NCBI GenBank assembly: GCA_944321565.1 | Contig: CALULT010000010.1 | Location: 16 to 64,015, forward strand | Length of the DNA: 64,000 nucleotides | Direction: 5' to 3' | DNA from: an uncultured Paraprevotella sp. | GTDB lineage: Bacteria; Bacteroidota; Bacteroidia; Bacteroidales; Bacteroidaceae | In this document: positions 1-41,771 of the stretch, one piece after another | Numbering within the stretch: position 1 is the first letter of the stretch | How the letters are laid out: every line of letters begins with the position of its first letter | Program-made: the position numbers and the translations under genes | Notes under the pieces: model-generated | The model's database searches: none | What the model saw: the letters and a program-made list of their open reading frames with translations, nothing else | Told to the model about the DNA's origin: nothing

Positions 1-105
1 TTCCAAAGCCTGCATGGTGATGGCGGCGCGCAATGTGTCGGCAAGCGCCCAACCAATAATCTGTCTTTTCCTGATTTCACTAGACACTTTTTTGTTTATA
101 AACTG

Positions 106-275
106 ACTCAAGTTTCGAATTTAGAAATTAGGCCGTTTGGGCGTATGCTCTGAGGGCGGCCAATCCCTTGCCGTTTTCAACGGCCTGCATTGTCAACTCA
201 TCGGAATCCGCATCGATAAGTTTCAGCTACTACACCACGACTTCCACTATAATCTCCTACTTACTTTGTCGAGGT
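106..275 (-). mobile_element. IS4-family IS remnant, copy A (terminal inverted repeat plus about 170 nt of the transposase 3' end)
   Basis: From ACTCAAGTTTCGAATTTAGAAATTAGGC onward it aligns by eye with 15669-15850, with scattered mismatches and one 1-nt indel. The similarity fades around 275. Confidence 0.6.
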
Positions 276-360
276 TGTGCCCCCTTACGACCTTGTTTAT
301 CCACGCCTTTGTGGAATTAAAAATTTCTACGTGAAATGCGAATCTTTCGGCCAAAAACAT

Positions 361-368
361 TATCTTTG
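361..368 (+). promoter_or_regulatory. Bacteroides-type -7 promoter box (TATCTTTG)
   Basis: Exact match to TAnnTTTG, 70 nt upstream of the ATG at 438 and downstream of the track ATG at 336. Confidence 0.45.
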
Positions 369-437
369 CTTTATGGAGATTCATCCGTCCACACGGGAGT
401 GGATGATTGTAATATTAACCTTTTAAATGTATCCATT

Positions 438-1682
438 ATGAAAAGACTTATTACGCTGACATTTGCTGTTTTCGCAATTTCCGAGCTGCAAGCGCAACTT
501 AAAATGTATTCCAACGGAAATGTGGGCATTCAATCCTCTGCCGTCCCCGAGGCCTCCTTGGTCGTGGGAGGGGATGCCAGTCACACAGGGAAGGGATTTA
601 AAAGTTACGTCAAGGCCAACCATTACTTGTTCCATGCAAGACGCGAAGGTGCCTATACTAACTCGGAGCCTTGGCTCGTGGCTTGTGAAGGCAATAATTT
701 TGTGGACGGGATAAACTTTTACATTGGAACAAAAGGATGTGCCTTTTATGACAACCCTGTATCACGAGGACGGGCATGGGGCGTCATAGGCGAAGCCGGA
801 AATGCCACCTCCGGTTTTAACTATGCCGTGCATGGCAATCTGAAGGGAAGTCAATACGGGGCATCCATCTTGGGAACATTGGACGATTTGGACATTTGTG
901 TTCCAGGACGTTATGTAGGTTATTTCATGGGCGATGTCCGCGCAACGGGAAATATTTATGGCACGGTGCTGACCCCTTCGGCATCTAGTTCCGTCTCGAT
1001 GGGACGCTCGGCGGTGATGCCCTTGTCGGTGGAAAGCGATGGTGCGAACAACATGTCGGTGGGAGAGAAATTCTCACGCTTGACGGCTGTGCAGTACAAC
1101 CTGTCTGAACCTCAAATGGCCCAGACTTTTGCTGCGGCGGGCGACACGGCAATGGCTGCCGTCCCGCATTCCGTGACAGACGCGCAGGCTTTGGAGAAGA
1201 CGCACTATGGCTTGGATGCCGAGGTGCTGAAGGAAGTCTATCCGGATTTAGTGTATGAAAGCCAGGAGGGCGACCTTTGCATCAACTATACGGAAATGAT
1301 TCCGTTGCTGGTGCAGTATGTCAACGAACTGCGCGCACAGGTCATTTCTTTGCAAGGGACGCAGGTATATAACGTGCGCAACCAAAGCGAAGAGAAGAGG
1401 AGCGGGAACGATATGTTGGACATGCCCTTGCTGGAACAAAACGACCCGAACCCGTTCACGCAAACAACCGTGGTGCGCTACACATTGCCGGAGAGTGTGC
1501 AATCCGCCTTTTTGTATATTTATGACCTGAACGGGACGCAAATCAACCAAAAAACGTTGGAGGGGCGCGGCAAATCTTCCGTGACGCTCGAAGCCGGAAG
1601 TCTGGCTCCCGGAATGTACTTGTATGCCCTCATTGCCGACGGCAAAGTCATCGACACTAAACGGATGATCATCACCAAGTAG
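438..1682 (+). CDS. Secreted tail-fibre-like protein with an endosialidase-chaperone (peptidase S74)-like domain and a T9SS type A C-terminal sorting domain
   Basis: Track ORF 336..1682. The in-frame ATG at 438 gives the signal peptide MKRLITLTFAVFAISELQAQ. HYGLDAEVLKEVYPDLVYESQEGDLCINYTEMIPLLVQYVNELRAQV resembles the intramolecular chaperone of phage tail fibres. The C-terminus LYIYDLNGTQ...GMYLYALIADGKVIDTKRMIITK is a canonical T9SS CTD. Confidence 0.8.
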   Translation: MKRLITLTFAVFAISELQAQLKMYSNGNVGIQSSAVPEASLVVGGDASHTGKGFKSYVKANHYLFHARREGAYTNSEPWLVACEGNNFVDGINFYIGTKGCAFYDNPVSRGRAWGVIGEAGNATSGFNYAVHGNLKGSQYGASILGTLDDLDICVPGRYVGYFMGDVRATGNIYGTVLTPSASSSVSMGRSAVMPLSVESDGANNMSVGEKFSRLTAVQYNLSEPQMAQTFAAAGDTAMAAVPHSVTDAQALEKTHYGLDAEVLKEVYPDLVYESQEGDLCINYTEMIPLLVQYVNELRAQVISLQGTQVYNVRNQSEEKRSGNDMLDMPLLEQNDPNPFTQTTVVRYTLPESVQSAFLYIYDLNGTQINQKTLEGRGKSSVTLEAGSLAPGMYLYALIADGKVIDTKRMIITK

Positions 1683-1724
1683 GGCGGCCGGACATAATGG
1701 CCGTTCCCTGCGACGTCCGGATGG

Positions 1725-1872
1725 CAAAAACTCCTCCGCCTTGTAGGGGAGAGAACTCGAAGAGCCGGAGGGGTTCCACATACACAAAAGTTACTTTTCA
1801 GTAGGTACACATGTGGACGTGAGCCTCCTCTATCTCTTCGGTGTTTGTCTCCCTGCGAGGCGAGACTGTTTG
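1725..1872. repeat. GC-rich intergenic repeat, copy 1 (second copy at 54342-54530)
   Basis: The cores CCTCCGCCTTG[T/C]AGGGGAG and CTCGAAGAGCCGGAGGGGTT are shared with 54352-54393. A second, looser block (1812-1872) matches 54468-54530. Both blocks have hairpin potential. Confidence 0.6.
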
Positions 1873-1924
1873 GCGATATGCGGAATATTGTATTTAGATT
1901 CTGACAAATTATTAAAAATAAGCT

Positions 1925-3082
1925 ATGAAAAAGATATTATTTTCACTCTTGTGTACAATGGTTATGTTGTGCAGGCTGCAAGCCCAAAACGCCGAAACCC
2001 ATGTGGCGGTATATGCCGGCGGGGCACCCTTGGAAACGTTGCTGACGGAGGCACAGAAACAGTCCGTGACATATTTGGAAATCACCGGAGGAAGTTTGTC
2101 GGACGAGGATTATGCCTTCTTGCGCGACAGTTTGTTGGAACAACTCGACACGTTGGACCTGCGCCATGCGGAGATTGACACCATACCTGCGGATGCTTTG
2201 GGCGAGATGAACCTCTATCTGATTTTGCCGGAAGTGATAGAATGCATCGGGGACTATGCCTTTACGGGAGAATGCGAAGTGACCGGAAACTTCCCTTTTT
2301 TGGGGGAATTTAAACTCGCATATAGTGCCAAGCCGGATTTTATTATAAGCTCTACTAACCCGAAACTTTCTTATGTGCAAAACAAAACTACGGCTTTAAT
2401 ATGTTCCAAAGACGAAGACACGGTTTTCTTTTTCAGATATAGAAATCCCATGTTGTCGCAAGAAGAACTAATCATACCTAAAGGCACAAAAATTATCAAT
2501 GCATCTGCTTATAGAGGAGAAAGTTTGTATCTAACAAACAATATTGTACTACCGGAAAGCCTTGATTCTATTGGAGATTATGCCTTCTCTGACATTTTCC
2601 CGGAAATAATGACGGGACGTAGCACAAAAGGGGAATATCAAAACGGTGGCAGCTACAACATCGGTTCTGTGGTTTGCGAAGCCAAAACGCCACCGAATTT
2701 TGGTAAAATTGGAACAGGAAATTTCATTGGAGACTATTGCTATCTTTACGTTCCTGAAGAAAGTCTTGAGGAGTATAAAAGAGCTAATGGATGGAAACGA
2801 TTCATGGAAGTACGAAGCCTTAAAAATATAATCAATTCTATTACAGAGATTCCAAGCAGACATCGAATAGAACTGACCGTTCTTCCTGAGAAATACATTC
2901 TCGCATTTCCACAAGATGTGAAACACATCAAATTATATGACACACAGGGGCGTATGCTGTCTGACATTCCCATCAAAGGAAAAACAATAGCCATCAATAG
3001 AATGAACTTGCTAAAACCATTTGCAATTACACACATATATTTTGCAGACGGCACAACCGAAACAGTCAAACTAATACCCTAA
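1925..3082 (+). CDS. BspA-type leucine-rich-repeat (LRR_5) secreted protein, paralog 1, with a T9SS-CTD-like tail
   Basis: Signal peptide MKKILFSLLCTMVMLCRLQAQ. Repeated ...IGDYAF... LRR_5 motifs. C-terminus ...KLYDTQGRML...IYFADGTTETVKLIP. Confidence 0.8.
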   Translation: MKKILFSLLCTMVMLCRLQAQNAETHVAVYAGGAPLETLLTEAQKQSVTYLEITGGSLSDEDYAFLRDSLLEQLDTLDLRHAEIDTIPADALGEMNLYLILPEVIECIGDYAFTGECEVTGNFPFLGEFKLAYSAKPDFIISSTNPKLSYVQNKTTALICSKDEDTVFFFRYRNPMLSQEELIIPKGTKIINASAYRGESLYLTNNIVLPESLDSIGDYAFSDIFPEIMTGRSTKGEYQNGGSYNIGSVVCEAKTPPNFGKIGTGNFIGDYCYLYVPEESLEEYKRANGWKRFMEVRSLKNIINSITEIPSRHRIELTVLPEKYILAFPQDVKHIKLYDTQGRMLSDIPIKGKTIAINRMNLLKPFAITHIYFADGTTETVKLIP

Positions 3083-3087
3083 AGATT

Positions 3088-3393
3088 ATGAAACGAAGAG
3101 TAGTTCTAATATTGCTGGCATGGGTCGCGTGTGCGCCCTTCCGAGCACAAATCGGCGGACACGTCGAAGTGAAAGTGGACGAACTGTCTTTTACCCGGCA
3201 GGACGGTTATGACGTCATCCGTTGGAGCGGCGGGACGGACAAGACGCAGGAAGTCGGAGCTCCAGAAATTCCCGTCATCTTCAAAACATACGTGGTGCCT
3301 TTGGAGGCACAGGTAACCGGAGTGGAGGTTTCATCATCCAACCGAATGGCCGTGGAAGGGAACTTTAAACCAACATATAATCTAACCTGCTAA
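3088..3393 (+). CDS. Truncated copy 1 of the C25 peptidase N-terminus (signal peptide plus the first part of the propeptide, 101 aa); intact ORF, possibly a gene remnant
   Basis: The first 93 codons are near-identical to the 5' end of 9093..13820. It diverges after nt 280 into K-P-TYNLTC-stop. Confidence 0.7.
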   Translation: MKRRVVLILLAWVACAPFRAQIGGHVEVKVDELSFTRQDGYDVIRWSGGTDKTQEVGAPEIPVIFKTYVVPLEAQVTGVEVSSSNRMAVEGNFKPTYNLTC

Positions 3394-3405
3394 AAATGAA
3401 AAGAT

Positions 3406-4581
3406 ATGAAAAAGATATTATTTTCAGTCCTGTGCACAATGATTGTGTTGTGCAGGCTGCAAGCCCAAAACGCCGAAACCCATGTGGCGGTACTTGCCGG
3501 CGAAGTACCCTTGGAAACATTGCTGACGGAGATGCAGAAACAGTCCGTGACATATTTGGAAATCACCGGAGGAACTTTGTCGGACAAGGATTATGCCTTC
3601 TTGCGCGACAGCTTGTTGGAACAACTCGACACGTTGGACCTGCGCCATGCGGAGATTGACACCATACCTGCGGATGCTTTGGGCGAAATGAACCTCTATC
3701 TGATTTTGCCGGAAGTGATAGAATGCATCGGGGACTATGCCTTTACGGGAGAATGCGAAGTGACCGGAAACTTCCCCTATATGGGAAAATATAAAAATTC
3801 CCCCTATGACAAACCTTTAATGCAAGCAAGTAAAGACCACCCCAAACTAGTTAATGTAGAAGAACTCTGTTACTTTGCGGTTTATTCCAAAGATGGAAAT
3901 ACACTTTATTATCTAAAACCGAAAGACGAATTCGCTTATTGGGGAGGTGAATTGGAGATACTGCCAAATACGCGAATTATAGCACCAACAGCTATACGGA
4001 ACGAATTGGTGCCTATGGAGGCAAACAATTTAATATTGCCAGAAAGCCTAGATTCCATTGGAGACTACGCATTTGATGTCACCCCAGATTTTATAACGGG
4101 CTATACTAATAAGAAGACTCATTATCCAAGCGGGGGAAATCGTGGCAGAGGAGGCATAGTATGTGAAGCCAAGAATCCTCCCAAATTTGGAATGCTCGGC
4201 AACTCTTTTTGGTTGAAATTCTGCTATTTGTATGTTCCAAAACCTAGTCTTGAGGCTTACAAAGCCGCTCCGGGATGGAAACTTGCACAAAAAATAGATA
4301 CGATAGAGAACCTTTTGAAGGGAGCCCAAAGTATATCATCCGTTCCTGGAGAGGGGGCAACATATGTTTCCATCACATCAACGGATGAAAACTACATCTT
4401 GTCTTTTTCAAAAGAACCCTTGCAGATGGATTTGTTTTCGGCAGACGGAAGCTTGCTCTCTTCCCAGATGGTTTCTTCCATGATGGTCACACTGCCTAAA
4501 ACAAACCTAAAAAAAACATTAACCATAGCCCATGTCCGTTTTGCGGACGGGACGAATGAAACAGTCAAACTAATGCCATAA
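3406..4581 (+). CDS. BspA-type LRR secreted protein, paralog 2
   Basis: Same signal peptide and N-terminal block as the other paralogs. IGDYAF motifs. Tail ...VRFADGTNETVKLMP. Confidence 0.8.
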   Translation: MKKILFSVLCTMIVLCRLQAQNAETHVAVLAGEVPLETLLTEMQKQSVTYLEITGGTLSDKDYAFLRDSLLEQLDTLDLRHAEIDTIPADALGEMNLYLILPEVIECIGDYAFTGECEVTGNFPYMGKYKNSPYDKPLMQASKDHPKLVNVEELCYFAVYSKDGNTLYYLKPKDEFAYWGGELEILPNTRIIAPTAIRNELVPMEANNLILPESLDSIGDYAFDVTPDFITGYTNKKTHYPSGGNRGRGGIVCEAKNPPKFGMLGNSFWLKFCYLYVPKPSLEAYKAAPGWKLAQKIDTIENLLKGAQSISSVPGEGATYVSITSTDENYILSFSKEPLQMDLFSADGSLLSSQMVSSMMVTLPKTNLKKTLTIAHVRFADGTNETVKLMP

Positions 4582-4586
4582 TAATT

Positions 4587-4892
4587 ATGAAACGAATAAT
4601 ACCTTTAATATGTCTGCTCTTGGCGGGATATCTGCCTGTCCGCGCCCAAATAGGCGGAATGGTCGAAGTGAATGTGAATGAATTGTATTTTTCCAAACAG
4701 GACAGTTACGATATGATTCGTTGGACTGGAGGAAATGACAAAATTCGTCAGGTTGGTGCTCCAGAACTTCCCGTTATCTTCAAAACTTACGTGGTGCCTT
4801 TGGAGGCACAGGTAACCGGGGTGGAAGTTTCATCATCCAACCGGATGGCCGTGGAAGGGAACTTTAAACTAACATATAATCTAACCCGCTAA
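4587..4892 (+). CDS. Truncated copy 2 of the C25 peptidase N-terminus, with a divergent 5' half (101 aa)
   Basis: MKRIIPLICLLLAGYLPVRAQ... differs at about 23 of the first 55 residues (manual alignment). It is identical from GAPELPVIF to F93 and has the same junction at nt 280. Confidence 0.7.
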   Translation: MKRIIPLICLLLAGYLPVRAQIGGMVEVNVNELYFSKQDSYDMIRWTGGNDKIRQVGAPELPVIFKTYVVPLEAQVTGVEVSSSNRMAVEGNFKLTYNLTR

Positions 4893-4904
4893 AAATGAAA
4901 AGCT

Positions 4905-6092
4905 ATGAAAAAGATGTTATTTTCAGTCTTGTGCACAATGATTGTGTTGTGCAGGCTGCAAGCCCAAAACGCCGAAACCCATGTGACGGTATATGCCGGC
5001 GGGGCACCCTTGGAAACGTTGCTGACGGAGGCGCAGAAACAATCGGTGAAACATTTGACGATTATCGGGACATTGCAAGATATGGATTATATCTTTTTGC
5101 GGGAGAATTTGTATCCACAGTTGGATACACTGGACTTACGAGAAGTGAATGTTGATACGTTGCCGAATATAAGAGTTGAAGATTATTCGCCGAAACCAAA
5201 CTATAACAAAGTCCATCTTGTTTTACCTATGAATATTGAATATATAGGAGCAAATTTCTTATATCAATTTTCTCGTTGTTATAGTTTGGAGGTGACTGGG
5301 AATTTTCCGGAATTCGGAGAAAGTGTTTACAGTATTCCGCAGTCTGGTGAAGTGAAAGTCTCATTGAGTGATGATAACTTTTCTTATATAACAAAGACAT
5401 TCAATTTTTTCGATGAATGGATTTCAGAAACCTATTCTTCAATATATTCATTAAATGAAGATACCCTTTATTACATGAACATGCCTGTGGACGGGAACTA
5501 TGTCATAAAGGAAGGTACAAAAGTCATTCATGGAACTGCATTTAGGAACCTTGGCTTTCCAACGTTTACGCTTATATTTCCTGCAACTCTGGATTCTATT
5601 GGAGACTATGCGTTTGAGCACACGGAATGTCCTGTTCCGACGAGTTATATTACTGGGGTCGGTGCATTGATTCTATGTTATGCGGTAGAACCTCCGAAAT
5701 TAGGGAAAGATGTTTTTAAAAATAGTGTATTAGGATCATCTATTTTATATGTACATGAGGCAAGTATCGAAAAATACAAAAATGCTAAAGATTGGAATCA
5801 AGCAGTGGAAATTCGTGCCATAGAAGAGATTGGAGCGCCGCCAAGTCGGATTTCTACACAAGTACAAAAGAAAAAAATATCTATCAAGGCTATGCCAAAT
5901 TCTTATGAACTGAATTTTGGTCAAGAGCCACTCTATATGGAGATGTACAGCACGAATGGGATATTGCTTACCAAGCGGTCTGTGGGCTCATCCACATTGT
6001 CTATCGACCGGAACCAATTAGTGTCTCCTTTTATCATTATGCTTGTTCGTTTTGCAGACGGCACAACCGAAACAGTCAAACTAATACCATAA
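4905..6092 (+). CDS. BspA-type LRR secreted protein, paralog 3 (most divergent core)
   Basis: It shares only about the first 48 residues and the last about 15 residues (RFADGTTETVKLIP) with the other paralogs. IGDYAF and IGANFL LRR motifs. Confidence 0.8.
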   Translation: MKKMLFSVLCTMIVLCRLQAQNAETHVTVYAGGAPLETLLTEAQKQSVKHLTIIGTLQDMDYIFLRENLYPQLDTLDLREVNVDTLPNIRVEDYSPKPNYNKVHLVLPMNIEYIGANFLYQFSRCYSLEVTGNFPEFGESVYSIPQSGEVKVSLSDDNFSYITKTFNFFDEWISETYSSIYSLNEDTLYYMNMPVDGNYVIKEGTKVIHGTAFRNLGFPTFTLIFPATLDSIGDYAFEHTECPVPTSYITGVGALILCYAVEPPKLGKDVFKNSVLGSSILYVHEASIEKYKNAKDWNQAVEIRAIEEIGAPPSRISTQVQKKKISIKAMPNSYELNFGQEPLYMEMYSTNGILLTKRSVGSSTLSIDRNQLVSPFIIMLVRFADGTTETVKLIP

Positions 6093-6097
6093 AGATT

Positions 6098-6403
6098 ATG
6101 AAACGAAGAATAGTTCTAATATTGCTGGCATGGGTCGCGTGTGCGCCCTTCCGAGCACAAATAGGCGGACACGTCGAAGTGGAAGTGGACGAACTGTCTT
6201 TTACCCGGCTGGACGGTTATGACATCATCCGTTGGAGCGGCGGGACGGACAAGACGCCGGAAATCGGAGCTCCGGAGCTTCCCGTTATCTTCAAAACATA
6301 CGTGGTGCCTTTGGAGGCACAGGTAACCGGAGTGGAAGTTTCATCATCCAACCGAATGGCCGTGGAAGGGGACTTTAAACTAACATATAATCTAACCTGC
6401 TAA
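6098..6403 (+). CDS. Truncated copy 3 of the C25 peptidase N-terminus (101 aa)
   Basis: Near-identical to the first 93 codons of 9093..13820, with the same junction. Confidence 0.7.
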   Translation: MKRRIVLILLAWVACAPFRAQIGGHVEVEVDELSFTRLDGYDIIRWSGGTDKTPEIGAPELPVIFKTYVVPLEAQVTGVEVSSSNRMAVEGDFKLTYNLTC

Positions 6404-6415
6404 AAATGAAAAGCT

Positions 6416-7579
6416 ATGAAAAAGATGTTGTTATTAATCTTGTGCACAATGGTTATGTTGTGCTGGCTGCAAGCCCAGAACGCCGAAACCCATGTGACGG
6501 TATATGCCGGCGGGGCACCCTTGGAAACGTTGCTGACGGAAGCACAGAAACAGTCCGTGACATATTTGGAAATCACCGGAGGGACTTTGTCGGACAAGGA
6601 CTATGTCTTCTTGCGCGACAGTTTGTTGGAACAACTCGACACGTTGGACCTGCGCCATGCGGAGATTGACACCATACCTACGGACGCTTTGGGCGAAATG
6701 AACCTCTATCTGATTTTGCCGGAAGTGATAGAATGCATCGGGGACTATGCCTTTACGGGAGAATGCGAAGTGACCGGAAACTTCCCCTATATGGGAGAAT
6801 ATAAAAATTCCCCCTATGACAAACCTTTAATGCAAGCAAGTAAAGACCACCCCAAACTAGTTGATGTAGAGGAACTCTGTTACTTTGCGGTTTATTCCAA
6901 AGACGGAAATACACTTTATTATCTAAAACCGAAAGAATATGTTTATTGGGGAGAAGATGTGATAATACAAACGGGTACACGGGTTATTGCTCCAACAGCT
7001 ATAAGAAATATGGATTTTCCTATAGAAATAATTAATTTGGTATTACCGGAAAGCATAGATTCCATCGGAGATTATGCTCTTGATATAAGACCGAATTTTA
7101 TGACAGGGTATAGTAGAAATAGGCGATATCCGAGTGGGGGATACTATGGTTACGGAAGTGTAATATGTGAAGCCAAAGATCCTCCCAAATTGGGTGAGTT
7201 GGGAGAGAATTTTTGGGTAGCACGTTCTAATCTATATGTCCCAAAGGCAAGCCTAGAGGCTTATAAAGATGCACCGGGATGGAATCTGGCAAGAGAAATC
7301 CTTTCAATAGAAAAACTCCTGGGAGTGGATGTTCCTTCTCTACGCAAAAAAGATGAAACAGCCATCTCCGTTACTTCCACTACGGAAAGTTACATTCTGA
7401 CTCTTTCTAAGAAACCTTTGCAGATGAATTTGTTGAATGTGGACGGGCGTGTCTTTGATGTGCAGACAGTATATTCCACAAAGATTATGCTCTCCAAGAA
7501 GCTTTTGCAAAATCCCATGACTTTAATACAAATCCGTTTTGCAGACGGCACAACCGAAACAGTCAAACTAATACCTTAA
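6416..7579 (+). CDS. BspA-type LRR secreted protein, paralog 4
   Basis: It shares about 170 N-terminal residues with paralog 2, then diverges. Tail IRFADGTTETVKLIP. Confidence 0.8.
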   Translation: MKKMLLLILCTMVMLCWLQAQNAETHVTVYAGGAPLETLLTEAQKQSVTYLEITGGTLSDKDYVFLRDSLLEQLDTLDLRHAEIDTIPTDALGEMNLYLILPEVIECIGDYAFTGECEVTGNFPYMGEYKNSPYDKPLMQASKDHPKLVDVEELCYFAVYSKDGNTLYYLKPKEYVYWGEDVIIQTGTRVIAPTAIRNMDFPIEIINLVLPESIDSIGDYALDIRPNFMTGYSRNRRYPSGGYYGYGSVICEAKDPPKLGELGENFWVARSNLYVPKASLEAYKDAPGWNLAREILSIEKLLGVDVPSLRKKDETAISVTSTTESYILTLSKKPLQMNLLNVDGRVFDVQTVYSTKIMLSKKLLQNPMTLIQIRFADGTTETVKLIP

Positions 7580-7584
7580 AGATT

Positions 7585-7890
7585 ATGAAACGAAGAATAG
7601 TTCTAATATTGCTGGCATGGGTCGCGTGTGCGCCCTTCCGAGCACAAATAGGCGGACACGTCGAAGTGGAAGTGGACGAACTGTCTTTTACTCAGCAGGA
7701 CGGTTATGACATCATCCGGTGGAGCGGTGGAACGGACAAGACGCAGGAAGTCGGAGCTCCAGAACTTCCCGTTATCTTCAAAACATACGTGGTGCCTTTG
7801 GAGGCACAGGTAACCGGAGTGGAGGTTTCATCATCCAACCGAATGGCCGTGGAAGGGAACTTTAAACTAACATATAATCTAACCTGCTAA
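7585..7890 (+). CDS. Truncated copy 4 of the C25 peptidase N-terminus (101 aa)
   Basis: Near-identical to the first 93 codons of 9093..13820, with the same junction. Confidence 0.7.
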   Translation: MKRRIVLILLAWVACAPFRAQIGGHVEVEVDELSFTQQDGYDIIRWSGGTDKTQEVGAPELPVIFKTYVVPLEAQVTGVEVSSSNRMAVEGNFKLTYNLTC

Positions 7891-7902
7891 AAATGAAAAG
7901 AT

Positions 7903-9087
7903 ATGAAAAAGATATTATTTTCACTCTTGTGTACAATGGTTATGTTGTGCAGGCTGCAAGCCCAGAACGCCGAAACCCATGTGACGGTACTTGCCGGCGA
8001 AGCGCCCTTGGAAACGTTGCTGACGGAGGCGCAAAAACAGTCCGTGACATATTTGGAAATCACCGGAGGAACTTTGTCGGACGAAGACTATGCCTTCTTG
8101 CGCGACAGCTTGTTGGAACAGCTTGACACGTTGGACCTGCGCCATGCGGAGATTGACACCATACCTGACTATGCTTTCGACCGCTACTTGCCGGAGACTC
8201 TTTGTTTCATATTACCTGAAGACATTCAATATGTAGGAAACAGTGCTTTCTCAACCACCAATTGGTACACTTTAGTCATAACAGGAAATTATCCTATTTT
8301 TGGGGAGAGGCTAGAAACATACATAAACCATATTCATATTGAAGCGAGTGATGACAACAAATATTGTAAAAATGTCATCCAAGAGAATGAATACCCCTAT
8401 TTATCCGTTTATTCGCGAGATGAAGAAATTCTCTATTTTATTAATGCACAATATGGGGTCTTTGAAGTCAAAAGCGGCACAAAACAGATTCATAGTTCTG
8501 CGTTTCAAGGAATCGTCCTTGCGTATCAGTGTACTTTGGTGTTTCCTTCATCTATAGACAGTATAGGAGATTACGCATTCAAAAGTACAGGTATAAATAT
8601 GCCAACAGGAAGCTATTCCAGAAATTATAACTTTCCTTTTAAGGATGGATGTGCCAGCCGTATAATCTGTGAAAGCGAAAATCCGCCTTCATTGGGAAAG
8701 GACGTATTTTATAACAGTTTTTATTATGATGAAGCCTGCCTTTATGTGCCAAAGAAAAGTCTTGAAACATACCGTAACACCCCAGGGTGGAATGAAGCAA
8801 AAAAAATCCGCGCCATAGAAGACATAGGCAAGGGAAGCTCCATCTTTGGTGGCAAAAAAACATCGCGGTTGGCCGTGCAAATAGATGGTGGTATTTATAC
8901 GATAAACTCATCCTGTGAAATTCAGTCAGTATCTTGCTATGACACCGCAGGACGTTTGTTGCCCATTCAGACAGGAAAGGATGCCCAATCATTTACGATG
9001 AGGAAAGCAAACATTACAAAACCTTACATACTGGTTCGTGTTCGTTTTGCAGACGGCACAACCGAAACAGTCAAACTAATACCCTAA
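7903..9087 (+). CDS. BspA-type LRR secreted protein, paralog 5
   Basis: It shares about 87 N-terminal residues (to LDLRHAEIDTIP) with the other paralogs. Tail VRFADGTTETVKLIP. Confidence 0.8.
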   Translation: MKKILFSLLCTMVMLCRLQAQNAETHVTVLAGEAPLETLLTEAQKQSVTYLEITGGTLSDEDYAFLRDSLLEQLDTLDLRHAEIDTIPDYAFDRYLPETLCFILPEDIQYVGNSAFSTTNWYTLVITGNYPIFGERLETYINHIHIEASDDNKYCKNVIQENEYPYLSVYSRDEEILYFINAQYGVFEVKSGTKQIHSSAFQGIVLAYQCTLVFPSSIDSIGDYAFKSTGINMPTGSYSRNYNFPFKDGCASRIICESENPPSLGKDVFYNSFYYDEACLYVPKKSLETYRNTPGWNEAKKIRAIEDIGKGSSIFGGKKTSRLAVQIDGGIYTINSSCEIQSVSCYDTAGRLLPIQTGKDAQSFTMRKANITKPYILVRVRFADGTTETVKLIP

Positions 9088-9092
9088 AGATT

Positions 9093-12000
9093 ATGAAACG
9101 AAGAATAGTTCTAATATTGCTGGCATGGGTCGCGTGTGCGCCCTTCCGAGCACAAATCGGCGGACACGTCGAAGTGGAAGTGGACGAACTGTCTTTTACC
9201 CAGCAGGACGGTTATGACGTCATTCGTTGGAGCGGTGGAACGGACAAGACGCAGGAAGTCGGAGCTCCGGAGCTTCCCGTCATCTTCAAAACATACGTGG
9301 TGCCTTTGGAGGCACAGATAACCGAAGTGGAAGTTTCATCATCCGACCGGATGGCCGTGGAAGGGAACTTTACGCCCTATCCCGTGCAACCGGCGGTACC
9401 AACAGACGGAACCCACGAAGTCCAGTTCACGCAACCGAAAGTTTCCATTTATCAAGGAACGGAGGTCTATCCGCAAGCAAAAGCGCAAATCGTGGCAGAC
9501 TACAATGAAATGGGATACCATTTGGTCACCGTGCAACTCAATCCGGTGGAATTCGATCCGGTTTCGCGGAAACTATTCGTCAGCCGTTTGGATTTCACAT
9601 TGCAATACGAAATGACCGCAAGCAATGCCGTACACCCCCTGCAACAGACTACGCGCCGCGCTAATATCATCAAAAAGGCCATCCGCGCCATGGTGGACAA
9701 CCCGGAAGACGTGGACGGCTTCATGAACCGCAAAGTGGAATTGGTTGGAATGGCAATGCCGGACGCGCAAACTCTCGCTGCGTCTTCTTCCTTGACAATC
9801 AACGTAATCCAAGAGCAGATTCCGGACTACATCATCATTACCAACAATGCGCTGAAAGGTGAATTCCAGCGTCTCGCCGACTGGAAAACGCAAAAGGGAG
9901 TGCCGACGTTAATCAAAGACATTGAAAGCATTGGAGAGGAATATCAGGGTTCGGATCTAGCAGAGAAAATACATGCTTATTTGCAGGAATGCTATCGCAA
10001 GTGGGGAGCCGGGCTGTTCGTGTTGCTGGGTGGGGATGTGAATATCATACCGGCAAGATGTTATATTTACTCAAATGCAGAATATCCATCCGATGCTTAT
10101 TATACAGACCTAGAATGCGATTGGAATGCCAACAAAAATCACATTTACAAAGAGCCCAATGATGGCATGAATATGGATCGGCTTTGCTATTTGGGACGCG
10201 CATCCGTAGAGAATAAGCAAGAAGCTAATGCCTTTATCAATAAGGTGCTCTTGTACGAGAAAATGGCGAATGCAAATACAAGCTATTTGATGAATCACTT
10301 GGCAGTTTCCGCTTATATTTCGAAAAATGAAACCACAGGATGGCTTTATTATGGCGGACAAGAGGATATTGATGACTATCTTTCCTCTCATTTCCAAGTC
10401 CACAAATGGTATTTGTTTGACCATTACAATTGCGATTGCTCCTTTCATAATCCAACCAAAAAGTTTGATTGCGGGGAAGAATTAAATAGGGAACATTTCC
10501 TTTCCGCCCTCCAAGACGGAGGAAATTCCGGATTGGGGCATTTCCATATCGTCTATCACATGGATCATTGCAACCCGCGCAACATGGCGGCTTCTTCCAT
10601 AGACAAGCATGAATACGTTTATATCCAAGACGTAGAAAACCTGAGGAACGAAGACTACCCTTTCATTATGATTTCCGGAGGATGCAAACCCGCAAAATTC
10701 GATGAAGATTGCATAGCGGAACATTTCCTGACGAATCCTTATGGCGGCGCGGTGGCATTTATTGGTAATGCAAATATTGGTTATGCGGATGAGCATAACC
10801 AATATCGAATTTTTTTAACTGCATTGTATAATGAACAGATTCGTTATTTAGGAATTCTTTTTAATCGAATGATTAATAAAGATACTAAATATGACCTTCA
10901 TGACTATTACCGCCTCCATCTTTTAGGCGACCCTGAAATGCCGATATGGTCTGCCGTGCCACAAACCTTGCAAGTGAACGTGTCCCCCACGCAAATGGAG
11001 TCCGGCACAAACAACATCATGGTGCAAGTCGCCAACCTGCCGGCTGGGGAAGAAGCCACGGTCTGCCTCATGAAGGACGCGGAGGCATATACTGTGGTGA
11101 CCGTGAACGACACGCGGCCGCATAGTTTCAGCTTCAGCCCGAAGACAGCAGGAGAAATAACCGTGACCGTGACGGCTCGCAACTTTCTGCCATTTGAAAA
11201 AGCGGTACCGGTGTCGGTAAACCATGGCAATTTGCTTTCCATCGGACAAATCAATGGATTTGATGGATACGTGTTGGCAGGAACAGAACGGGAATTCGAC
11301 ATCGTGCTAAGAAACAACGGGCAAACGGCAGCAGGGAACGTGACGGCCACTTTGTCCTCGTCCTCCCCTTATGTGACGGTCACCCAGGGGACGGTGAACT
11401 ACGGCACAATAAGTGCCGGGCAGTCCAAGACCGGGACAGGAAAATTCAAAGTACAAATCTCCGCAGACGCGCCAGAAACGGGGCGCAACGAATGGAACGC
11501 CCCTTGCTTCTACCTGACGATGGAAAAGGACGGGACGGAGACAACGGACGTGGACACGTTCAAAGTGGATGTGAAGCACTACAAGTACAGAATTGCCCGC
11601 CTCGCCCTTGCTTCGGGTGCCACCCTGAAACCGGGCGGGCAGATTACGATGAACCTGTACTCGGAGAATCTGGGGGATGCGGCTTCATCAGCTCCGCATT
11701 GGAAGGTTACGCCGCTAGAACCGGCAAAAGCGACGGTAGTCCAAACCACCGCTTCCACTTGCATTTGCACCCTTACGGAAGATTATGAAGCCGGCAGCCG
11801 TCTGCCAATCAAAGTACAGCTCTATGTAGGCGACATGCTGCAAGACGAAGTGACTTGGAACGTGGCGGAAAAAGCCGTGCCGGTGGACTTGTCGAAATTG
11901 GTGTCCGAACTGGATGCCGAAGCCATTTCTTTCCATTGGGACAAAATGGGAGGGGAAGACAAATACAATGTTTACCGCAGCACCTCGGAGGCCGGACCTT

Positions 12001-13820
12001 ACCTCAAACTCAACTCTCTTCCGCTGGAAACCAGGTATTACAAGGACGAAGGACTGCAACCCTTGACCACTTACTATTACAAGTTCTCCACACTGACGCA
12101 GGGAATGGTGGAAAGCAACCTGTCTCCAGCCCTACGCACATGGACGACCTATCCGGCCATGGACATGTTCCCGCTCTCCATGGGGATGAGCCTGCACTAT
12201 GCCTGCGAGACGCACACGGCCGATTTCGACTACGACGGGCAAAAGGAAATCTTCCTTACGGGATATACGGATGAAGGGACGGAAGCGCTCTTGGTCGCCA
12301 TCCGGCCGGACGGCACGGAACCTTACGACCTGGACGGAAACGTCACTTCATACAGCGGATATGCGGAAATCCCATTCCGCACGGACGCAACCCCAGTGGT
12401 GGCCGACCTCTTGGGCAACGGTGAGCCGTGCATTATCGTGCCCACGAGGAACAGCAATGGGGACAATTACGTCATCTGCTACTCCTCGTTGGACAAGGAT
12501 GGGGACAAGCTGCCGGACAAACTGTGGGAAACTTCCATCGGGAATATGCCTTCTTATCGCAGTGTGGTGGTCACAGACATAGACATGCCGGACGGGAAAG
12601 GCGAAAAGGAAATCATCCTGCGGGGAGAAAATGGCAATGCCCCGGTCATCGTGCTGGATGCTTACGGGAAAGAAAAGATGCGCACCGCGAACACTGTGGG
12701 CAGTTTTTACGGTGTTCCGGCCGTGGCCGACCTTGATGGTGACGGTTACAAGGAAATCATCTGCGGAACCGAAGCCGGGCAAGTGTACGTGTGGCGGCAC
12801 AACGGCAGCACTTACCTCCGTTCGCCCTTCTTCTCCCACGCGGGAGAGAAACTGAACTGCTCCCCCACGGTCTGCGACCTGGACGGCGACGGCAAGAAGG
12901 AAATCCTCATCACGACAAGGACCACGACCTTGAGCTACATCTATGCCATCAAGCAGGACGGCACCTGCGTGGGGAACTTCGACCGCGAGGCGGCGCAGCC
13001 CGTTTCCATTCCTTATACGGATGCGTCGGGTAGCGGAATCGAGCATCCCGTCAGTGTGGGCGACATCAATGGCGACGGCGACTTGGAGGTAGTCGCCATC
13101 GGGCACGAATGCGTAAGGGCATGGACGCATACGGGTACGTTGATTTTCGACCGTGCCATCCCCGGCCTGTGCCCGGACAAGGAATGGGCCATCAACCTGA
13201 CGTGTCCCCTGTTGGCCGACGTGGACGGCGACGGTGACATTGACATCGTGTTCCATCAGGACAATCTGATTTACGCCCTGCACCACGACGGGACAGACGT
13301 GAAAGGCTTCCCGTTGTCTGCGCCGGCCAATATCAGCAACGGGATTTGTGTGTCGGACATGGACGGCGACGGGAAAAACGAGATTGTTTCCGCAGACGAC
13401 AGCGGCAACATCTGCGCTTGGAAGACAGACGGGAAATCCACTGCCATCGAATGGGGACGCGCCCGCTTCGACACGGGATTCACCGGAGAATACATCCCGC
13501 ATTATGAAGACCCGAAAGTGGTCACCACATCCACGGAATGGGGCGGAGGACAGTTCAACAACGACCTCATCATACGCGGCGGCACGTTTAAAATCCCGGC
13601 CGGGAAGACCTTGCTGATGCGCGAGGGGTGCCGGATTCATGTGCTCGAAGGAGGGACACTGGACGTGGATGGCGGCACGGTGGAAAATGCCGACATCCTG
13701 CTGAAACCCGGCAGCGTGTTGAATGTCAAGAACAATGGCTATGTGCTTCTCAACCGACATGGGAAACTCGATGCCGAACAAGGCGCAACCGTCAATGCCT
13801 TGTATGGGGAAGTGCGTTAG
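9093..13820 (+). CDS. Gingipain-like C25 family cysteine peptidase (1575 aa): propeptide, C25 catalytic domain, Ig/Fn3-like domains and an FG-GAP/VCBS beta-propeller
   Basis: PDYIIITNNALKGEFQRLADWKTQKGV, GLGHFHIVYHMDHC (putative catalytic His region) and IMISGGCKPAKFDED (putative catalytic Cys) are C25-like. ISFHWDKMGGEDKYNVYRS looks Fn3-like. At least 8 repeats of the type DLDGDGKKEI / DVDGDGDIDIV / DMDGDGKNEIV are FG-GAP-like. Confidence 0.85.
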   Translation: MKRRIVLILLAWVACAPFRAQIGGHVEVEVDELSFTQQDGYDVIRWSGGTDKTQEVGAPELPVIFKTYVVPLEAQITEVEVSSSDRMAVEGNFTPYPVQPAVPTDGTHEVQFTQPKVSIYQGTEVYPQAKAQIVADYNEMGYHLVTVQLNPVEFDPVSRKLFVSRLDFTLQYEMTASNAVHPLQQTTRRANIIKKAIRAMVDNPEDVDGFMNRKVELVGMAMPDAQTLAASSSLTINVIQEQIPDYIIITNNALKGEFQRLADWKTQKGVPTLIKDIESIGEEYQGSDLAEKIHAYLQECYRKWGAGLFVLLGGDVNIIPARCYIYSNAEYPSDAYYTDLECDWNANKNHIYKEPNDGMNMDRLCYLGRASVENKQEANAFINKVLLYEKMANANTSYLMNHLAVSAYISKNETTGWLYYGGQEDIDDYLSSHFQVHKWYLFDHYNCDCSFHNPTKKFDCGEELNREHFLSALQDGGNSGLGHFHIVYHMDHCNPRNMAASSIDKHEYVYIQDVENLRNEDYPFIMISGGCKPAKFDEDCIAEHFLTNPYGGAVAFIGNANIGYADEHNQYRIFLTALYNEQIRYLGILFNRMINKDTKYDLHDYYRLHLLGDPEMPIWSAVPQTLQVNVSPTQMESGTNNIMVQVANLPAGEEATVCLMKDAEAYTVVTVNDTRPHSFSFSPKTAGEITVTVTARNFLPFEKAVPVSVNHGNLLSIGQINGFDGYVLAGTEREFDIVLRNNGQTAAGNVTATLSSSSPYVTVTQGTVNYGTISAGQSKTGTGKFKVQISADAPETGRNEWNAPCFYLTMEKDGTETTDVDTFKVDVKHYKYRIARLALASGATLKPGGQITMNLYSENLGDAASSAPHWKVTPLEPAKATVVQTTASTCICTLTEDYEAGSRLPIKVQLYVGDMLQDEVTWNVAEKAVPVDLSKLVSELDAEAISFHWDKMGGEDKYNVYRSTSEAGPYLKLNSLPLETRYYKDEGLQPLTTYYYKFSTLTQGMVESNLSPALRTWTTYPAMDMFPLSMGMSLHYACETHTADFDYDGQKEIFLTGYTDEGTEALLVAIRPDGTEPYDLDGNVTSYSGYAEIPFRTDATPVVADLLGNGEPCIIVPTRNSNGDNYVICYSSLDKDGDKLPDKLWETSIGNMPSYRSVVVTDIDMPDGKGEKEIILRGENGNAPVIVLDAYGKEKMRTANTVGSFYGVPAVADLDGDGYKEIICGTEAGQVYVWRHNGSTYLRSPFFSHAGEKLNCSPTVCDLDGDGKKEILITTRTTTLSYIYAIKQDGTCVGNFDREAAQPVSIPYTDASGSGIEHPVSVGDINGDGDLEVVAIGHECVRAWTHTGTLIFDRAIPGLCPDKEWAINLTCPLLADVDGDGDIDIVFHQDNLIYALHHDGTDVKGFPLSAPANISNGICVSDMDGDGKNEIVSADDSGNICAWKTDGKSTAIEWGRARFDTGFTGEYIPHYEDPKVVTTSTEWGGGQFNNDLIIRGGTFKIPAGKTLLMREGCRIHVLEGGTLDVDGGTVENADILLKPGSVLNVKNNGYVLLNRHGKLDAEQGATVNALYGEVR

Positions 13821-13831
13821 CCTTTACACAG

Positions 13832-13870
13832 CGGGACGGCCAGGATTGAAACCTGCGCCGTCCCGTTTTT
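13832..13870 (+). terminator. Rho-independent terminator after the C25 gene
   Basis: CGGGACGG (13832-13839) pairs with CCGTCCCG (13858-13865), followed by TTTTT. Confidence 0.7.
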
Positions 13871-13944
13871 CAAACCAAGGATAGGAATGCCATGGGCAGA
13901 CATACTTACTTGCCTAAGTAAGATATCCTCCATTTTGTACCCTT

Positions 13945-13968
13945 ACTCAAAATTCGAATTTAGGAATA
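13945..13968. repeat. Solo IS-end-like sequence (copy C of the IS4-family terminal repeat)
   Basis: ACTCAAAATTCGAATTTAGGAATA matches the termini at 106 and 15669 at about 20 of 24 positions. There is no similarity beyond that. Confidence 0.4.
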
Positions 13969-14024
13969 TTACTCAAAGCCATAAGCACAATTACAAAAAC
14001 CCCATCAGAGATCCGCAAGTTTTT

Positions 14025-15480: not shown

Positions 15481-15668
15481 TAGTCAGACATAAGCAATTT
15501 GACTTATTATGTAAGCATATAAGGTTAACCTCTTATTTCCCATTATTTATGAGAACCTCCAGCCGCCTACTAATAATCAGAAGTTTCCATTATGATAAGC
15601 TGAAAAAGAAATAGGATAAAGTGTGACACTAAAATGGCGCTAAAATTTACAATGCCATCTAATTATAT

Positions 15669-16085
15669 ACTCAAGTTTCGGATTTAGAAATTAGGCAGTT
15701 TGGGCGTAGCTCTGAGTGCAGCCAACCTCTTGTCGTTCTCAAGAACCTGCATAGTCAGCTCGTCTGAGTCCGCCCCGATAAGTTCTGCTACCACCGCCAC
15801 GACTTCCACTATAATCCCCCATATTTTCTCGACGACAGTCAGCTCATGAACTCCCATGTATATGTCTTCGAACAGCCCTCAGATGGTGTCGTAGTCAAGC
15901 GTCCTCTTTATGGAAGCGAGCATGTTATAGCGTATCATGACCAATGACACATGGGCTATGTGTGCGGAAAAATCGCGTGAAGAGCAGTCGGCGAGCCCGG
16001 GCATCCGCTTGCTGTCGGAGAAGAAGACCTCGATGCTCCGGCGCATTGAGTAGATTTCATAGGCGCACATGAATTCGGCATCCAA
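15669..16085 (-). pseudogene. IS4-family DDE transposase, C-terminal fragment plus IS terminus (copy B)
   Basis: ORF 15879..16085 carries the IS4 Y(2)R(3)E(6)K signature (YSMRRSIEVFFSDSK). It has no N-terminal DDE region. The reading frame breaks at 15879 while the similarity to copy A continues down to the terminus at 15669. Confidence 0.75.
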
Positions 16086-16269
16086 TGATTAAGCGATTTC
16101 CAACACCGACTAGCTATTTTTCTGAATTTCCTTATATATCTTTAGCCTAAAGATACAACTTTTTCGAGCACGAAAAGAATCTCGCTTTTTTCCGCCCCCG
16201 TTTTTTGCGGTTCGGGATTTTATTGATAACTTGCCGCGCCAAAATTATTGAGTGCACCAAAAGCAAACC

Positions 16270-17532
16270 ATGAAGATATTGCATACTGCCGACCTGCACC
16301 TGGGGCAGGTCATTTACCAGAACTACGACCGCACCGACGAACACGACTGCTTTTTCTCCCAGTTGGAGCAATGGTGCAGGGAGGAACGTCCCGACGCCTT
16401 GGTCGTGAGCGGCGACGTGTTCGACATACAGCAACCATCGGCCGCGACGTGGAAAAACTTCACCGACCGCTTCGTCCGCCTGCATGAGGCTTCGCCCGGC
16501 ATGCACATCGTCATCGTCGCGGGAAACCACGACTCCGCCTCCCGCATCCAATCCCACAACGCCGTGTGGAAACTGGCCGACGTGCATCTCGTCGGCATGC
16601 CGCCACCGGCCGGCCCAACTGCAGCAGACGGATGGCAAACGCGCTTCGTCGTCAAGTTGCCGGGCGGCTATGTCGTGGCATTGCCTTACATGACCGGGGA
16701 GCGCACCGCCACCCTCCAAGCCCTGCTCGACTTTGTAGAGGCTGACAACACGGACAGAAAACCGGTGGTCATGACAGGCCACCTGGCCGTCACCGGATGC
16801 GACACGACAGGCCACGATTTCGACATCGGGCACACCAGGACACAAGCCCCCGCCAGCCTCGGTACAGGATACGACTACCTCGCCCTGGGCCACATCCACA
16901 AACCGCAGACCATCGGGCACGAACAGGACTGCATGAACCCGGACGTGACCTATCCCGCTCCCGTCATCCGTTACGCGGGAAGTGCCCTGCACGTGAGCTG
17001 CGACGAGAATTATCCGCATACGGCCAGCTGCGTGGAAATCGACCGCCATGGCGGGCTGGTGCGCATCCGGCAACTACGCATCCGCGAGCTGCGGCATTTC
17101 TACACCCTCCCCTCGCCCGACACTTCGTTCACCTGCGCCGAAGATGCACTGGAAGGCATTCGGCAGTTCGCGGAAGAAAAGGGGAAGGGCTACATCCGCC
17201 TGCAAATAGACTGCCGCGCGTCGTTGCCTTCCGACTTCAGCCAAATGGCCTATGCCCTCATCGAACCTTACGGGGACGAGCTGCGCTACAACCCGAAAAT
17301 CCTGTGGACCGGCACACCGGACACCCCCAGGGAGGAGACCGCAAAGCCCAAATTCGAAGTGGCGGAAATCCAACAAATGACCGACCCCATGCTTTTCATC
17401 GAAAAGACCTGGGCACAGTACCCTGAACTTGACTTGGACGAAGTGCGCGAAGCTTTTGTCGAGATAGAGGCGGAAATGAAACGCATGGAGGAAGAAGACA
17501 GCACATCCGGCAAAAAGGCCAAAAAGAACTGA
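16270..17532 (+). CDS. sbcD: Exonuclease SbcCD, nuclease subunit D (Mre11-like)
   Basis: MKILHTADLHLGQ, VSGDVFD and AGNHDS are calcineurin-like phosphoesterase motifs. The ATG at 16270 was chosen over the track start at 16252. Confidence 0.9.
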   Translation: MKILHTADLHLGQVIYQNYDRTDEHDCFFSQLEQWCREERPDALVVSGDVFDIQQPSAATWKNFTDRFVRLHEASPGMHIVIVAGNHDSASRIQSHNAVWKLADVHLVGMPPPAGPTAADGWQTRFVVKLPGGYVVALPYMTGERTATLQALLDFVEADNTDRKPVVMTGHLAVTGCDTTGHDFDIGHTRTQAPASLGTGYDYLALGHIHKPQTIGHEQDCMNPDVTYPAPVIRYAGSALHVSCDENYPHTASCVEIDRHGGLVRIRQLRIRELRHFYTLPSPDTSFTCAEDALEGIRQFAEEKGKGYIRLQIDCRASLPSDFSQMAYALIEPYGDELRYNPKILWTGTPDTPREETAKPKFEVAEIQQMTDPMLFIEKTWAQYPELDLDEVREAFVEIEAEMKRMEEEDSTSGKKAKKN

Positions 17533-17551
17533 CACGACAAGCCACACCGTC

Positions 17552-27165: not shown

Positions 27166-27195
27166 AGAAGCTCCCTACCGTTCAAAAAAGATACA

Positions 27196-27229
27196 GCCGC
27201 AACATCCATTCAGCATCAGATGTTGCGGC
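27196..27229. terminator. Bidirectional hairpin terminator
   Basis: GCCGCAACATC ... GATGTTGCGGC, between the convergent genes ending at 27165 and 27256. Confidence 0.65.
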
Positions 27230-27255
27230 CATTATTTTATTACGGTGCTCTACTT

Positions 27256-29790: not shown

Positions 29791-29809
29791 AGTTTATCCA
29801 TTCTGCGTA

Positions 29810-29817
29810 CAAAGATA
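29810..29817 (-). promoter_or_regulatory. Bacteroides-type -7 box (TATCTTTG on the minus strand)
   Basis: Exact match, about 20 nt upstream of the ATG at 29790. Confidence 0.45.
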
Positions 29818-30043
29818 AGGCATTCCCGACAACCCCAATAGCACTATCCCGCCATTTTTTGGTACTAGATCGGCCATTCATCCATATTTGCATGGCAATT
29901 ATAGTAAAAAGCGAGAGGAAAAACTTCAATATTAATCGGTCATTATGGCAAATTCCTAAGCTGGCTCACAACCACAAAATGTTCCGAACCACCAAGCTAA
30001 TTACAATTCTACAATTAGAACAGCCGCACAATCAACCAACCAC

Positions 30044-30799: not shown

Positions 30800-30805
30800 A
30801 CCCCC

Positions 30806-32266: not shown

Positions 32267-32286
32267 AATCTTCGCAGTAAAATTCA

Positions 32287-33075: not shown

Positions 33076-33083
33076 GCCACAAA

Positions 33084-35935: not shown

Positions 35936-35965
35936 ATTATTACCACCTATATTAAACCAACCCAA

Positions 35966-36850: not shown

Positions 36851-36852
36851 AA

Positions 36853-41761: not shown

Positions 41762-41771
41762 AACAACAGTC

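Follow-up and report, generated by a model that had tools for sequence, protein, structure and literature searches.

The 64,000-nucleotide (nt) stretch of DNA analyzed here, referred to as the window, belongs to an assembly, most likely a metagenome-assembled genome (MAG), of an uncultured Paraprevotella sp. (GenBank assembly GCA_944321565.1, contig CALULT010000010.1, positions 16 to 64,015 of the forward strand). It carries an array of five head-to-tail units of 1481–1511 nt, each made of a complete leucine-rich repeat (LRR) gene and nt 1–280 of a gene for a C25 peptidase; in the fifth unit, these 280 nt are the start of the intact peptidase gene. The array lies downstream of a gene for a predicted type IX secretion system (T9SS) cargo protein, and the coordinates of all features are given in Table 1. 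The list of open reading frames (ORFs) contained five LRR genes encoding 385–395 amino acids (aa) and, between them, four 101-codon ORFs, which are stubs of the peptidase gene. The repeat finder returned families of five copies, spaced 1481/1499/1511/1487 and 1499/1511/1487/1508 nt apart. A preliminary description of this DNA, made from the letters alone, had given the same start codons and unit spacings, all of which we reproduced to the nucleotide with these two tools.

The units are connected by one and the same junction. By direct reading, all four stubs of the window match the full-length gene through ...GAAGGG[A/G]ACTTTA, which ends at nt 280, and then run into AAC[C/T]AACATATAATCTAACC[T/C]GCTAAAAATGAAAAG[A/C]TATG, the leader of the next LRR gene, giving C-termini that read FK[P/L]TYNLT[C/R] followed by a stop codon. 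The single shared breakpoint proposed in the preliminary description was thus the same in all four window junctions. Given that the Propeptide_C25 match in the full-length gene (Pfam, residues 40–187) spans the break, which falls at codon 94, the short ORFs are truncations of the long gene and not the reverse. Outside the window, 43 of 43 complete stubs on distinct related contigs had the same breakpoint nucleotide and an intact 101-codon ORF, in eight sequence variants, and the same breakpoint was also found in a strain lineage that is 3–6% divergent. These identical breakpoints support the earlier proposal that one junction was propagated, and comparison of the contigs shows the junction to be identical by descent in all strains seen. 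The junction search in related genomes that had been suggested as a check found it in all related contigs of the species. Neither a 280-nt stub nor this junction was present in the sister species examined (Paraprevotella relatives L023, L024, and L085), and an exact junction search of the Joint Genome Institute (JGI) metagenome collection gave 0 matches. A further claim, that the sequence past the junction loosely resembles the region upstream of the first LRR gene, fared less well. Some likeness is visible in the ∼15 nt before the ATG only, and it was not statistically significant: local alignments of the 38 nt past the junction to the sister-species inter-LRR spacer and to the LRR1 upstream region were no better than those of shuffled sequences, with 311/2000, 1188/2000, and 308/2000 shuffles reaching the alignment scores. 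A single illegitimate join linked peptidase nt 280 to the position 38 nt upstream of the start codon of an LRR gene, and the result was a unit that could be duplicated, consisting of one LRR gene and a 5' stub of the peptidase gene.

Within the units, ends and cores have different histories. In a five-way alignment with a sliding identity profile, the unit ends were 82–100% identical, over 5' stretches of ∼300 nt and 3' stretches of 326 nt, and the core of ∼0.95 kilobases (kb) was 25–60% identical. The exceptions were units 2 and 4, near-identical to column 600, units 1, 2, and 4, near-identical to approximately column 480, and the stub of unit 2, whose first ∼230 nt represent a divergent allele with 62–75% identity. 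The first 55 columns of the protein alignment were 76–94% identical among the five paralogs and 55–71% identical to sister-species genes. The LRR cores were 32–49% identical among the five window paralogs, apart from LRR2 and LRR4, which belong to the same lineage and share 72% identity, and orthologous cores across species shared 64–73% aa identity. The LRR1 core came nearest to gene b of P. xylaniphila, the second LRR gene there (64% aa identity), and the LRR3 core was 67% identical to the first LRR gene of that species (gene a). The LRR2 and LRR4 cores shared 71–73% identity (71% for LRR2) with gene b of Paraprevotella sp. bin65, again the second LRR gene. Synonymous divergence (dS) over the first 51 codons was 0.13–0.24 between window paralogs versus 0.87–1.25 between cross-species orthologues, while the paralog cores had dS values above 2.4, and the LRR2 and LRR4 cores had a nonsynonymous divergence (dN) of 0.18 and a dS of 0.71. 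Given the core orthologues in other species and the low dS of the ends, we infer that the cores are older than the species and that the ends were homogenized later by gene conversion. The preliminary description had the middles of the LRR genes replaced or strongly diverged; they are indeed highly distinct, but they did not diverge in place, being ancient lineages of paralogs whose orthologues occur in sister species. Given dN/dS values of ∼0.2–0.26 between orthologues and for LRR2 versus LRR4, the cassettes are functional genes under purifying selection. All 76 complete LRR ORFs in related contigs were intact.

We compared the window with ∼30 distinct contigs of the same species (numbered L001 and onward), which were retrieved from several metagenome projects by exact-protein look-up and whose arrays were typed by unit-specific probes, with V1–V5 denoting the cassette types; all compared sequences are short-read genome or metagenome assemblies. 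Arrays of 2, 3, 4, and 5 units in seven arrangements were found within this one species (Table 1), and each adjacency seen in the window recurs in other contigs (L012, L015, L020, L021, and L022). Copy number and cassette order therefore vary among related strains, the variation that the preliminary description had suggested looking for, and these strains show no single fixed five-unit array. In L076, the first LRR gene (4926–6089) is chimeric, mostly resembling V4 but resembling V2 in its last ∼50 residues, and is therefore a further recombinant. The peptidase gene of the same contig (7606–12371) was called as two ORFs of 210 and 1389 aa, indicating a frameshift or a pseudogene.

The stubs preserve traces of exchange between such arrays. 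In a map of single-nucleotide polymorphisms, stub F2 was a mosaic, its first ∼230 nt being identical to the functional peptidase 5' end of L001 and L002 and its last ∼50 nt corresponding to the common type, with the allele switch located ∼50 nt before the junction, inside the conserved block. Stub F3 was 99% identical to the functional peptidase 5' end of the three-unit strains L003–L007. Given that F2 and F3 match functional alleles, both are very recent derivatives, as expected from unequal crossovers between arrays. L003-type strains were 100% identical to the window over positions 1–6377 and 88–90% identical in the peptidase body, and this drop places a recombination boundary at the stub. 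The unequal crossing-over invoked in the preliminary description gains support from the mosaic stub F2, with its switch within the conserved block, and strain-level expansion, contraction, and re-assortment of the array are shown by comparison of the assembled sequences. A homology block of ∼0.63 kb is formed by the final ∼30 nt of one LRR gene, the 280-nt stub, and ∼300 nt from the start of the LRR gene that follows. Through unequal crossing-over and gene conversion, exchange between such blocks changes the number of units (2–5) and re-assorts cassettes between strains, and the same exchange processes homogenize the unit ends, with the ∼0.95-kb cores persisting as old paralog lineages under purifying selection. 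We therefore read the array as a recombination-driven tandem "gene accordion" of complete genes for secreted BspA-like LRR proteins, flanked by a T9SS-cargo gene on one side and the C25/FG-GAP peptidase gene on the other, and assign this reading a probability of roughly 0.8.

Table 1. Features of the array locus in the window, corresponding relics in sister species, and cassette arrangements on related contigs (window positions unless a contig is named).
Feature	Location	Strand	Remarks
Left-flank gene, 448-aa secreted protein with T9SS C-terminal sorting domain	336..1682	+	Por_Secre_tail E=3.3e-7 (Pfam), TIGR04183 E=3.9e-9
Sole sizeable intergenic region of the block, 242 nt; presumed promoter region of the whole array	1683..1924	+	
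Unit 1	1887..3367	+	LRR1 1925–3082 (385 aa); stub F1 (C25-homologous 3088–3367; ORF 3088–3393)
Unit 2	3368..4866	+	LRR2 3406–4581 (391 aa); stub F2 (4587–4866; ORF 4587–4892)
Unit 3	4867..6377	+	LRR3 4905–6092 (395 aa); stub F3 (6098–6377; ORF 6098–6403)
Unit 4	6378..7864	+	LRR4 6416–7579 (387 aa); stub F4 (7585–7864; ORF 7585–7890)
Unit 5	7865..9372	+	LRR5 7903–9087 (394 aa); first 280 nt of intact peptidase gene
Full-length C25 peptidase gene, 1575 aa	9093..13820	+	Pfam profile matches
Duplication junction, C25 nt 280 joined 38 nt upstream of LRR start codon	3355..3405	+	Again at 4854–4904, 6365–6415, 7852–7902
Short-junction relics	L024 8780–8860; L023 8760–8850; L085 6330–6375 and 7560–7665		
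Arrangement V1-V2-C25	L001, L002		
Arrangement V1-V2-V3-C25	L003–L006, partial L007		
Arrangement V2-V3'-C25	L074, L075, L077–L082 flank to flank; L083 without right flank		∼10 samples, two assembly pipelines; lineage 3–6% divergent
Arrangement V4'-V3'-C25	L076		
Arrangement UP-V2-V3-V4-V5 (left flank present)	L012		V1 absent
Arrangement V1-F1-V5	L019; F1-V5 also in L018		
Five units	Window; L011 at 99.9%		

Relatives place the array in a broader context. Based on the peptidase, the closest species representatives were Paraprevotella sp. bin65 (67%) and P. xylaniphila (66%), with Xylanibacter muris and Prevotella MAGs at ∼48%. Relatives in Paraprevotella and Prevotella keep the same gene order, with a T9SS-cargo gene followed by one to three LRR genes and then the C25/FG-GAP peptidase gene, and the left-flank T9SS-cargo gene was found directly upstream of the LRR gene or genes in L023, L024, L026, L028, L084, and L085. 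This conserved order suggests a functional partnership of the LRR proteins and the protease. No described system linking LRR cassettes to repeated peptidase 5' segments was known to the author of the preliminary description; our targeted literature searches likewise found no description of an LRR/C25 cassette array, but the linkage of LRR and peptidase genes in itself is common to these relatives. P. xylaniphila (L024), Paraprevotella sp. bin65 (L023), and L085 have from two to at least three tandem LRR genes, which are joined by a short relic comprising ∼12 nt of the peptidase start (ATGAAACGAAAT) and not 280 nt. After each non-terminal LRR stop codon in these sister species follow a gap of 4–5 nt, the ∼12 nt of peptidase start (TTATGAAACGAAAT), and then a spacer. 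These short-junction arrays resemble the window array in gene order, in their tandem LRR genes, and in the presence of a peptidase-start relic between LRR genes. Given that the 12-nt and 280-nt joins differ, the two junction types arose independently, and LRR duplication that clipped the peptidase start therefore occurred at least two times at this locus. L085 has at least three LRR genes with repeats of the short junction between them, and in P. xylaniphila, the ATG of the relic shares its reading frame with the LRR gene that follows.

The spacing of the genes bears on how the array may be expressed. Gaps in the block measure 5 nt from an LRR stop codon to the following stub or peptidase start, 12 nt from a stub stop codon to the following LRR start, and 242 nt upstream of LRR1. 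No terminators were found between units, and Rfam and transfer RNA scans detected no RNA genes within the array. Given the 5- and 12-nt gaps and that neither a promoter nor a terminator was found between units, the array is probably one operon transcribed from upstream of LRR1. A single operon with the stub ORFs as translated bridges is probably the simplest reading of the gene layout. In such an operon, the stub ORFs would hold ribosomes on the transcript from one LRR gene to the next, and the count of different LRR proteins that a strain sends out through the T9SS would depend on its number of units.

The assignment of the LRR proteins combines profile matches with structure prediction. Against a cut-off of 27.7 bits, the LRR_5 profile scored 28.8 for LRR1, 36.7 for LRR5, and 22.1, below the cut-off, for LRR3, and did not match LRR2 or LRR4. 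The AlphaFold model of LRR5, which was built on a 34-sequence family alignment and had a mean predicted local distance difference test (pLDDT) score of 82, contained a signal peptide, an LRR solenoid, and a C-terminal beta-sandwich of ∼75 residues. The model matched BT_1240 (3sb4) and PcpA (4cp6) with probabilities of 0.99–1.0 and low global template modeling (TM) scores of 0.25–0.29. Its C-terminal domain superposed on T9SS sorting domains (8gl6_D, TM 0.76, root-mean-square deviation 2.3 Å; 8gl8_D, TM 0.72) and also matched the sorting domains of RgpB and mirolase. By predicted fold, the LRR proteins are thus BspA-like cargo of the T9SS. While LRR1 and LRR5 share with BspA-type proteins the LRR_5 matches, and LRR5 the predicted fold, with an N-terminal signal peptide and a T9SS-like C-terminal domain as further common features, the array proteins are much shorter (385–395 aa) and have few repeats, with LRR2 and LRR4 below all hidden Markov model (HMM) thresholds. 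In further contrast to BspA-type proteins, they form a narrow family (46 clusters at 90% identity, essentially Paraprevotella and Prevotellaceae) whose genes always adjoin the C25/FG-GAP peptidase gene.

The full-length peptidase is predicted to consist of a signal peptide, a C25 propeptide, a C25 catalytic domain, an FG-GAP propeller, and a beta-helix-like tail. Pfam matches supported the catalytic domain (Peptidase_C25, E=3.8e-48, profile positions 1–373/374), the propeller (FG-GAP_3, E=1e-25), and the propeptide (Propeptide_C25, 22.4 bits versus a cut-off of 22). Among solved structures, a distant match to gingipain R was found, in an alignment that covers only the N-terminal part of the C25 domain. 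Although the two C25 matches and this distant similarity relate the protein to gingipain-family peptidases, it differs from gingipains and PorU in its length of 1575 aa, its FG-GAP propeller, and its beta-helix-like tail, and no T9SS sorting domain was detected in it with PF18962 or TIGR04183 at E≤1. An identification as PorU was rejected, as PorU-like matches were weak (42 bits versus a model cut-off of 420). Between strains, the peptidase body (9373–10900, especially 10727–10902) is 88–90% identical where the flanks are 97–100% identical, and ∼175 nt of the gene have no alignment to the L003-type allele; the protease itself may be under diversifying pressure.

Several observations count against the gene accordion. 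Repeats of 0.63 kb at 90–100% identity can be mis-joined in short-read assemblies, and the single-contig variants L012, L019, and L076 are less secure than those seen in multiple samples. Scans for the sigma-70 consensus and for the Bacteroidota motif TAnnTTTG yielded no informative promoter between units or upstream of LRR1, and the sorting-domain profiles PF18962 and TIGR04183 had no match in the five LRR proteins at E≤1, so that the predicted fold alone shows this domain. A rival explanation is that the five-unit array, or the shorter arrays of other contigs, are assembly artefacts produced by repeat mis-joining or collapse. In its favor are the short-read origin of all sequences and the many contigs that break in the conserved block (L013, L014, L016, and L017 start ∼130 nt before LRR5), indicating that assemblers struggle here. 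Such an artefact is nevertheless very unlikely. Each unit has a unique ∼0.95-kb core, and five units can therefore not be the result of artificial expansion; their order is repeated in the independent scaffold L011, and the adjacencies are repeated in further samples. The two- and three-unit arrays come from 2, 5, and ∼10 samples and from two pipelines. They also carry distinct peptidase alleles with 88–94% identity, and thus represent different strains. The 10 V5 sample accessions listed (of 17 contigs) did not overlap with the samples that gave two- and three-unit arrays, and together with the distinct peptidase alleles, this makes collapse of a universal five-unit array unlikely.

Other processes could in principle generate real variation of this kind. 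One would be a programmed cassette system, in which the junction is the site of a dedicated recombinase (integron-, shufflon-, or invertase-like) or a retroelement diversifies the cores. The identical junctions, the strain differences in cassette order and number, and the strain-variable integrase and VapE genes found just left of the locus in some strains would fit such a system. However, the junction lies inside the peptidase coding sequence and carries 280 nt along, which is the signature of a segmental duplication and not of a cassette boundary, and crossovers occurred within homologous sequence and not at the junction. An inverted-repeat search of positions 1–14000 gave chance-level pairs only, and no recombinase or reverse transcriptase was found in the first 21 kb, where the neighbors are DUF3307, a helix-turn-helix protein, transposase remnants, and SbcCD. 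The cores, which differ by indels and in 50–70% of residues and have orthologues elsewhere, are also unlike retroelement targets, and we consider a programmed system highly improbable. Silent-cassette antigenic variation of the pilS or vls type, with the promoter-proximal LRR gene alone expressed and the downstream units serving as a silent archive, likewise appears unlikely. While unit 1 alone has an upstream intergenic region, and in L012 the V2 core lies directly behind the unit-1 upstream region, as expected if cores can move into first position, all cassettes are full ORFs that have a start codon, a signal peptide, and a C-terminal domain. Purifying selection on the cores also speaks against an archive, the short gaps and the lack of terminators favor co-transcription, and sister species keep one to three such genes as ordinary adjacent genes.

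The gene accordion has parallels among known systems. In a classical tandem duplication, one novel join of non-homologous points is multiplied by unequal exchange and truncates the gene at the join, and the Paraprevotella array similarly has one novel join, multiplied, that truncates the peptidase gene. Classical amplifications are unstable and consist of near-identical copies, whereas the join in this array has persisted through 3–6% strain divergence and its units carry different old paralogs. Another parallel is the csa1 lipoprotein cluster of Staphylococcus aureus, a gene accordion for which Belikova et al. (2020; PMC7360770) demonstrated real-time expansion and contraction, dependence on recA, and immune consequences. 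Both loci consist of head-to-tail paralogs of exported, potentially immunogenic proteins, with recombination-driven copy number differences between close strains. In contrast to csa1, the homology block in Paraprevotella includes a hitch-hiking 280-nt fragment of the downstream peptidase gene that is preserved as an intact 101-codon ORF, and the cores belong to ancient lineages and are not recent copies. Distinctive of the Paraprevotella locus are the 280-nt stub kept as an ORF, the ancient cores with homogenized ends, and the conserved C25/FG-GAP partnership. The Paraprevotella trypsin-degradation locus 00502–00509 was considered and rejected as a counterpart: the paper describes different proteins (the Omp28-related, Ig-like-domain protein 00502 and its partner 00509; Li et al., 2022), and in P. 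muris, 00502 is on NZ_JABKKF010000005 and the homologue of the array locus on NZ_JABKKF010000015.

The surroundings of the array contain possible signs of past mobility. A 168-nt direct repeat (82% identity) at positions 106–272 and 15669–15832 (with 15620–16085, minus strand) brackets a 15.5-kb module of the flank gene, the array, the peptidase gene, DUF3307, and a helix-turn-helix gene. Both copies resemble degenerate 3' ends of an IS4-like transposase gene, and the right copy continues a transposase fragment that ends in ...LDYDTI. The genomic neighbors of the module vary between species, and the module was perhaps mobile in the past. Left of window position ∼59, mobile-element genes vary by strain, either VapE/DUF3874 or an rve-type integrase (L001 5057–6364; L003 2505–3327), which puts the locus at the margin of a strain-variable region. 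Right of the module, genes for the SbcD (Metallophos) and SbcC nucleases occupy 16252–20998, an adjacency that is kept in other strains of the species. Farther along the window, a long minus-strand gene run with strongly negative GC skew and lower G+C content extends over 27000–45000. It includes genes for GH31, a radical SAM/B12 protein, a thiamine pyrophosphate (TPP) enzyme, MatE, and a polysaccharide export protein, and this region probably contains a capsule or exopolysaccharide locus. A transfer-messenger RNA gene with the tag peptide GENKYALAA is located at 45144–45542.

What the gene accordion means for the bacterium depends on its weakest step, in which a variable LRR repertoire would alter adhesion or escape from host antibody or phage. 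Adaptive antigenic variation at this locus is plausible. A more far-reaching possibility is that the array is a selected contingency locus, with the stubs acting both as portable homology handles and as translated bridges that keep a long operon expressed, which we regard as doubtful. If it were true, gut Paraprevotella would rapidly change, within the host, the number and identity of the LRR adhesins displayed via the T9SS alongside their partner C25/FG-GAP protease, a cassette-type surface variation that is undescribed in gut Bacteroidota. On a practical level, the 101-aa "hypothetical proteins" annotated at such loci are gene fragments, and the unique junction sequence (ACTTTA directly followed by AACYAACATATAATC) tags every unit, making copy number and cassette order traceable in metagenomes or long reads. 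The locus is real and well explained by known processes, and reveals no new mechanism; it is a clean natural example of between-strain change in the surface-protein repertoires of uncultured gut Bacteroidota.

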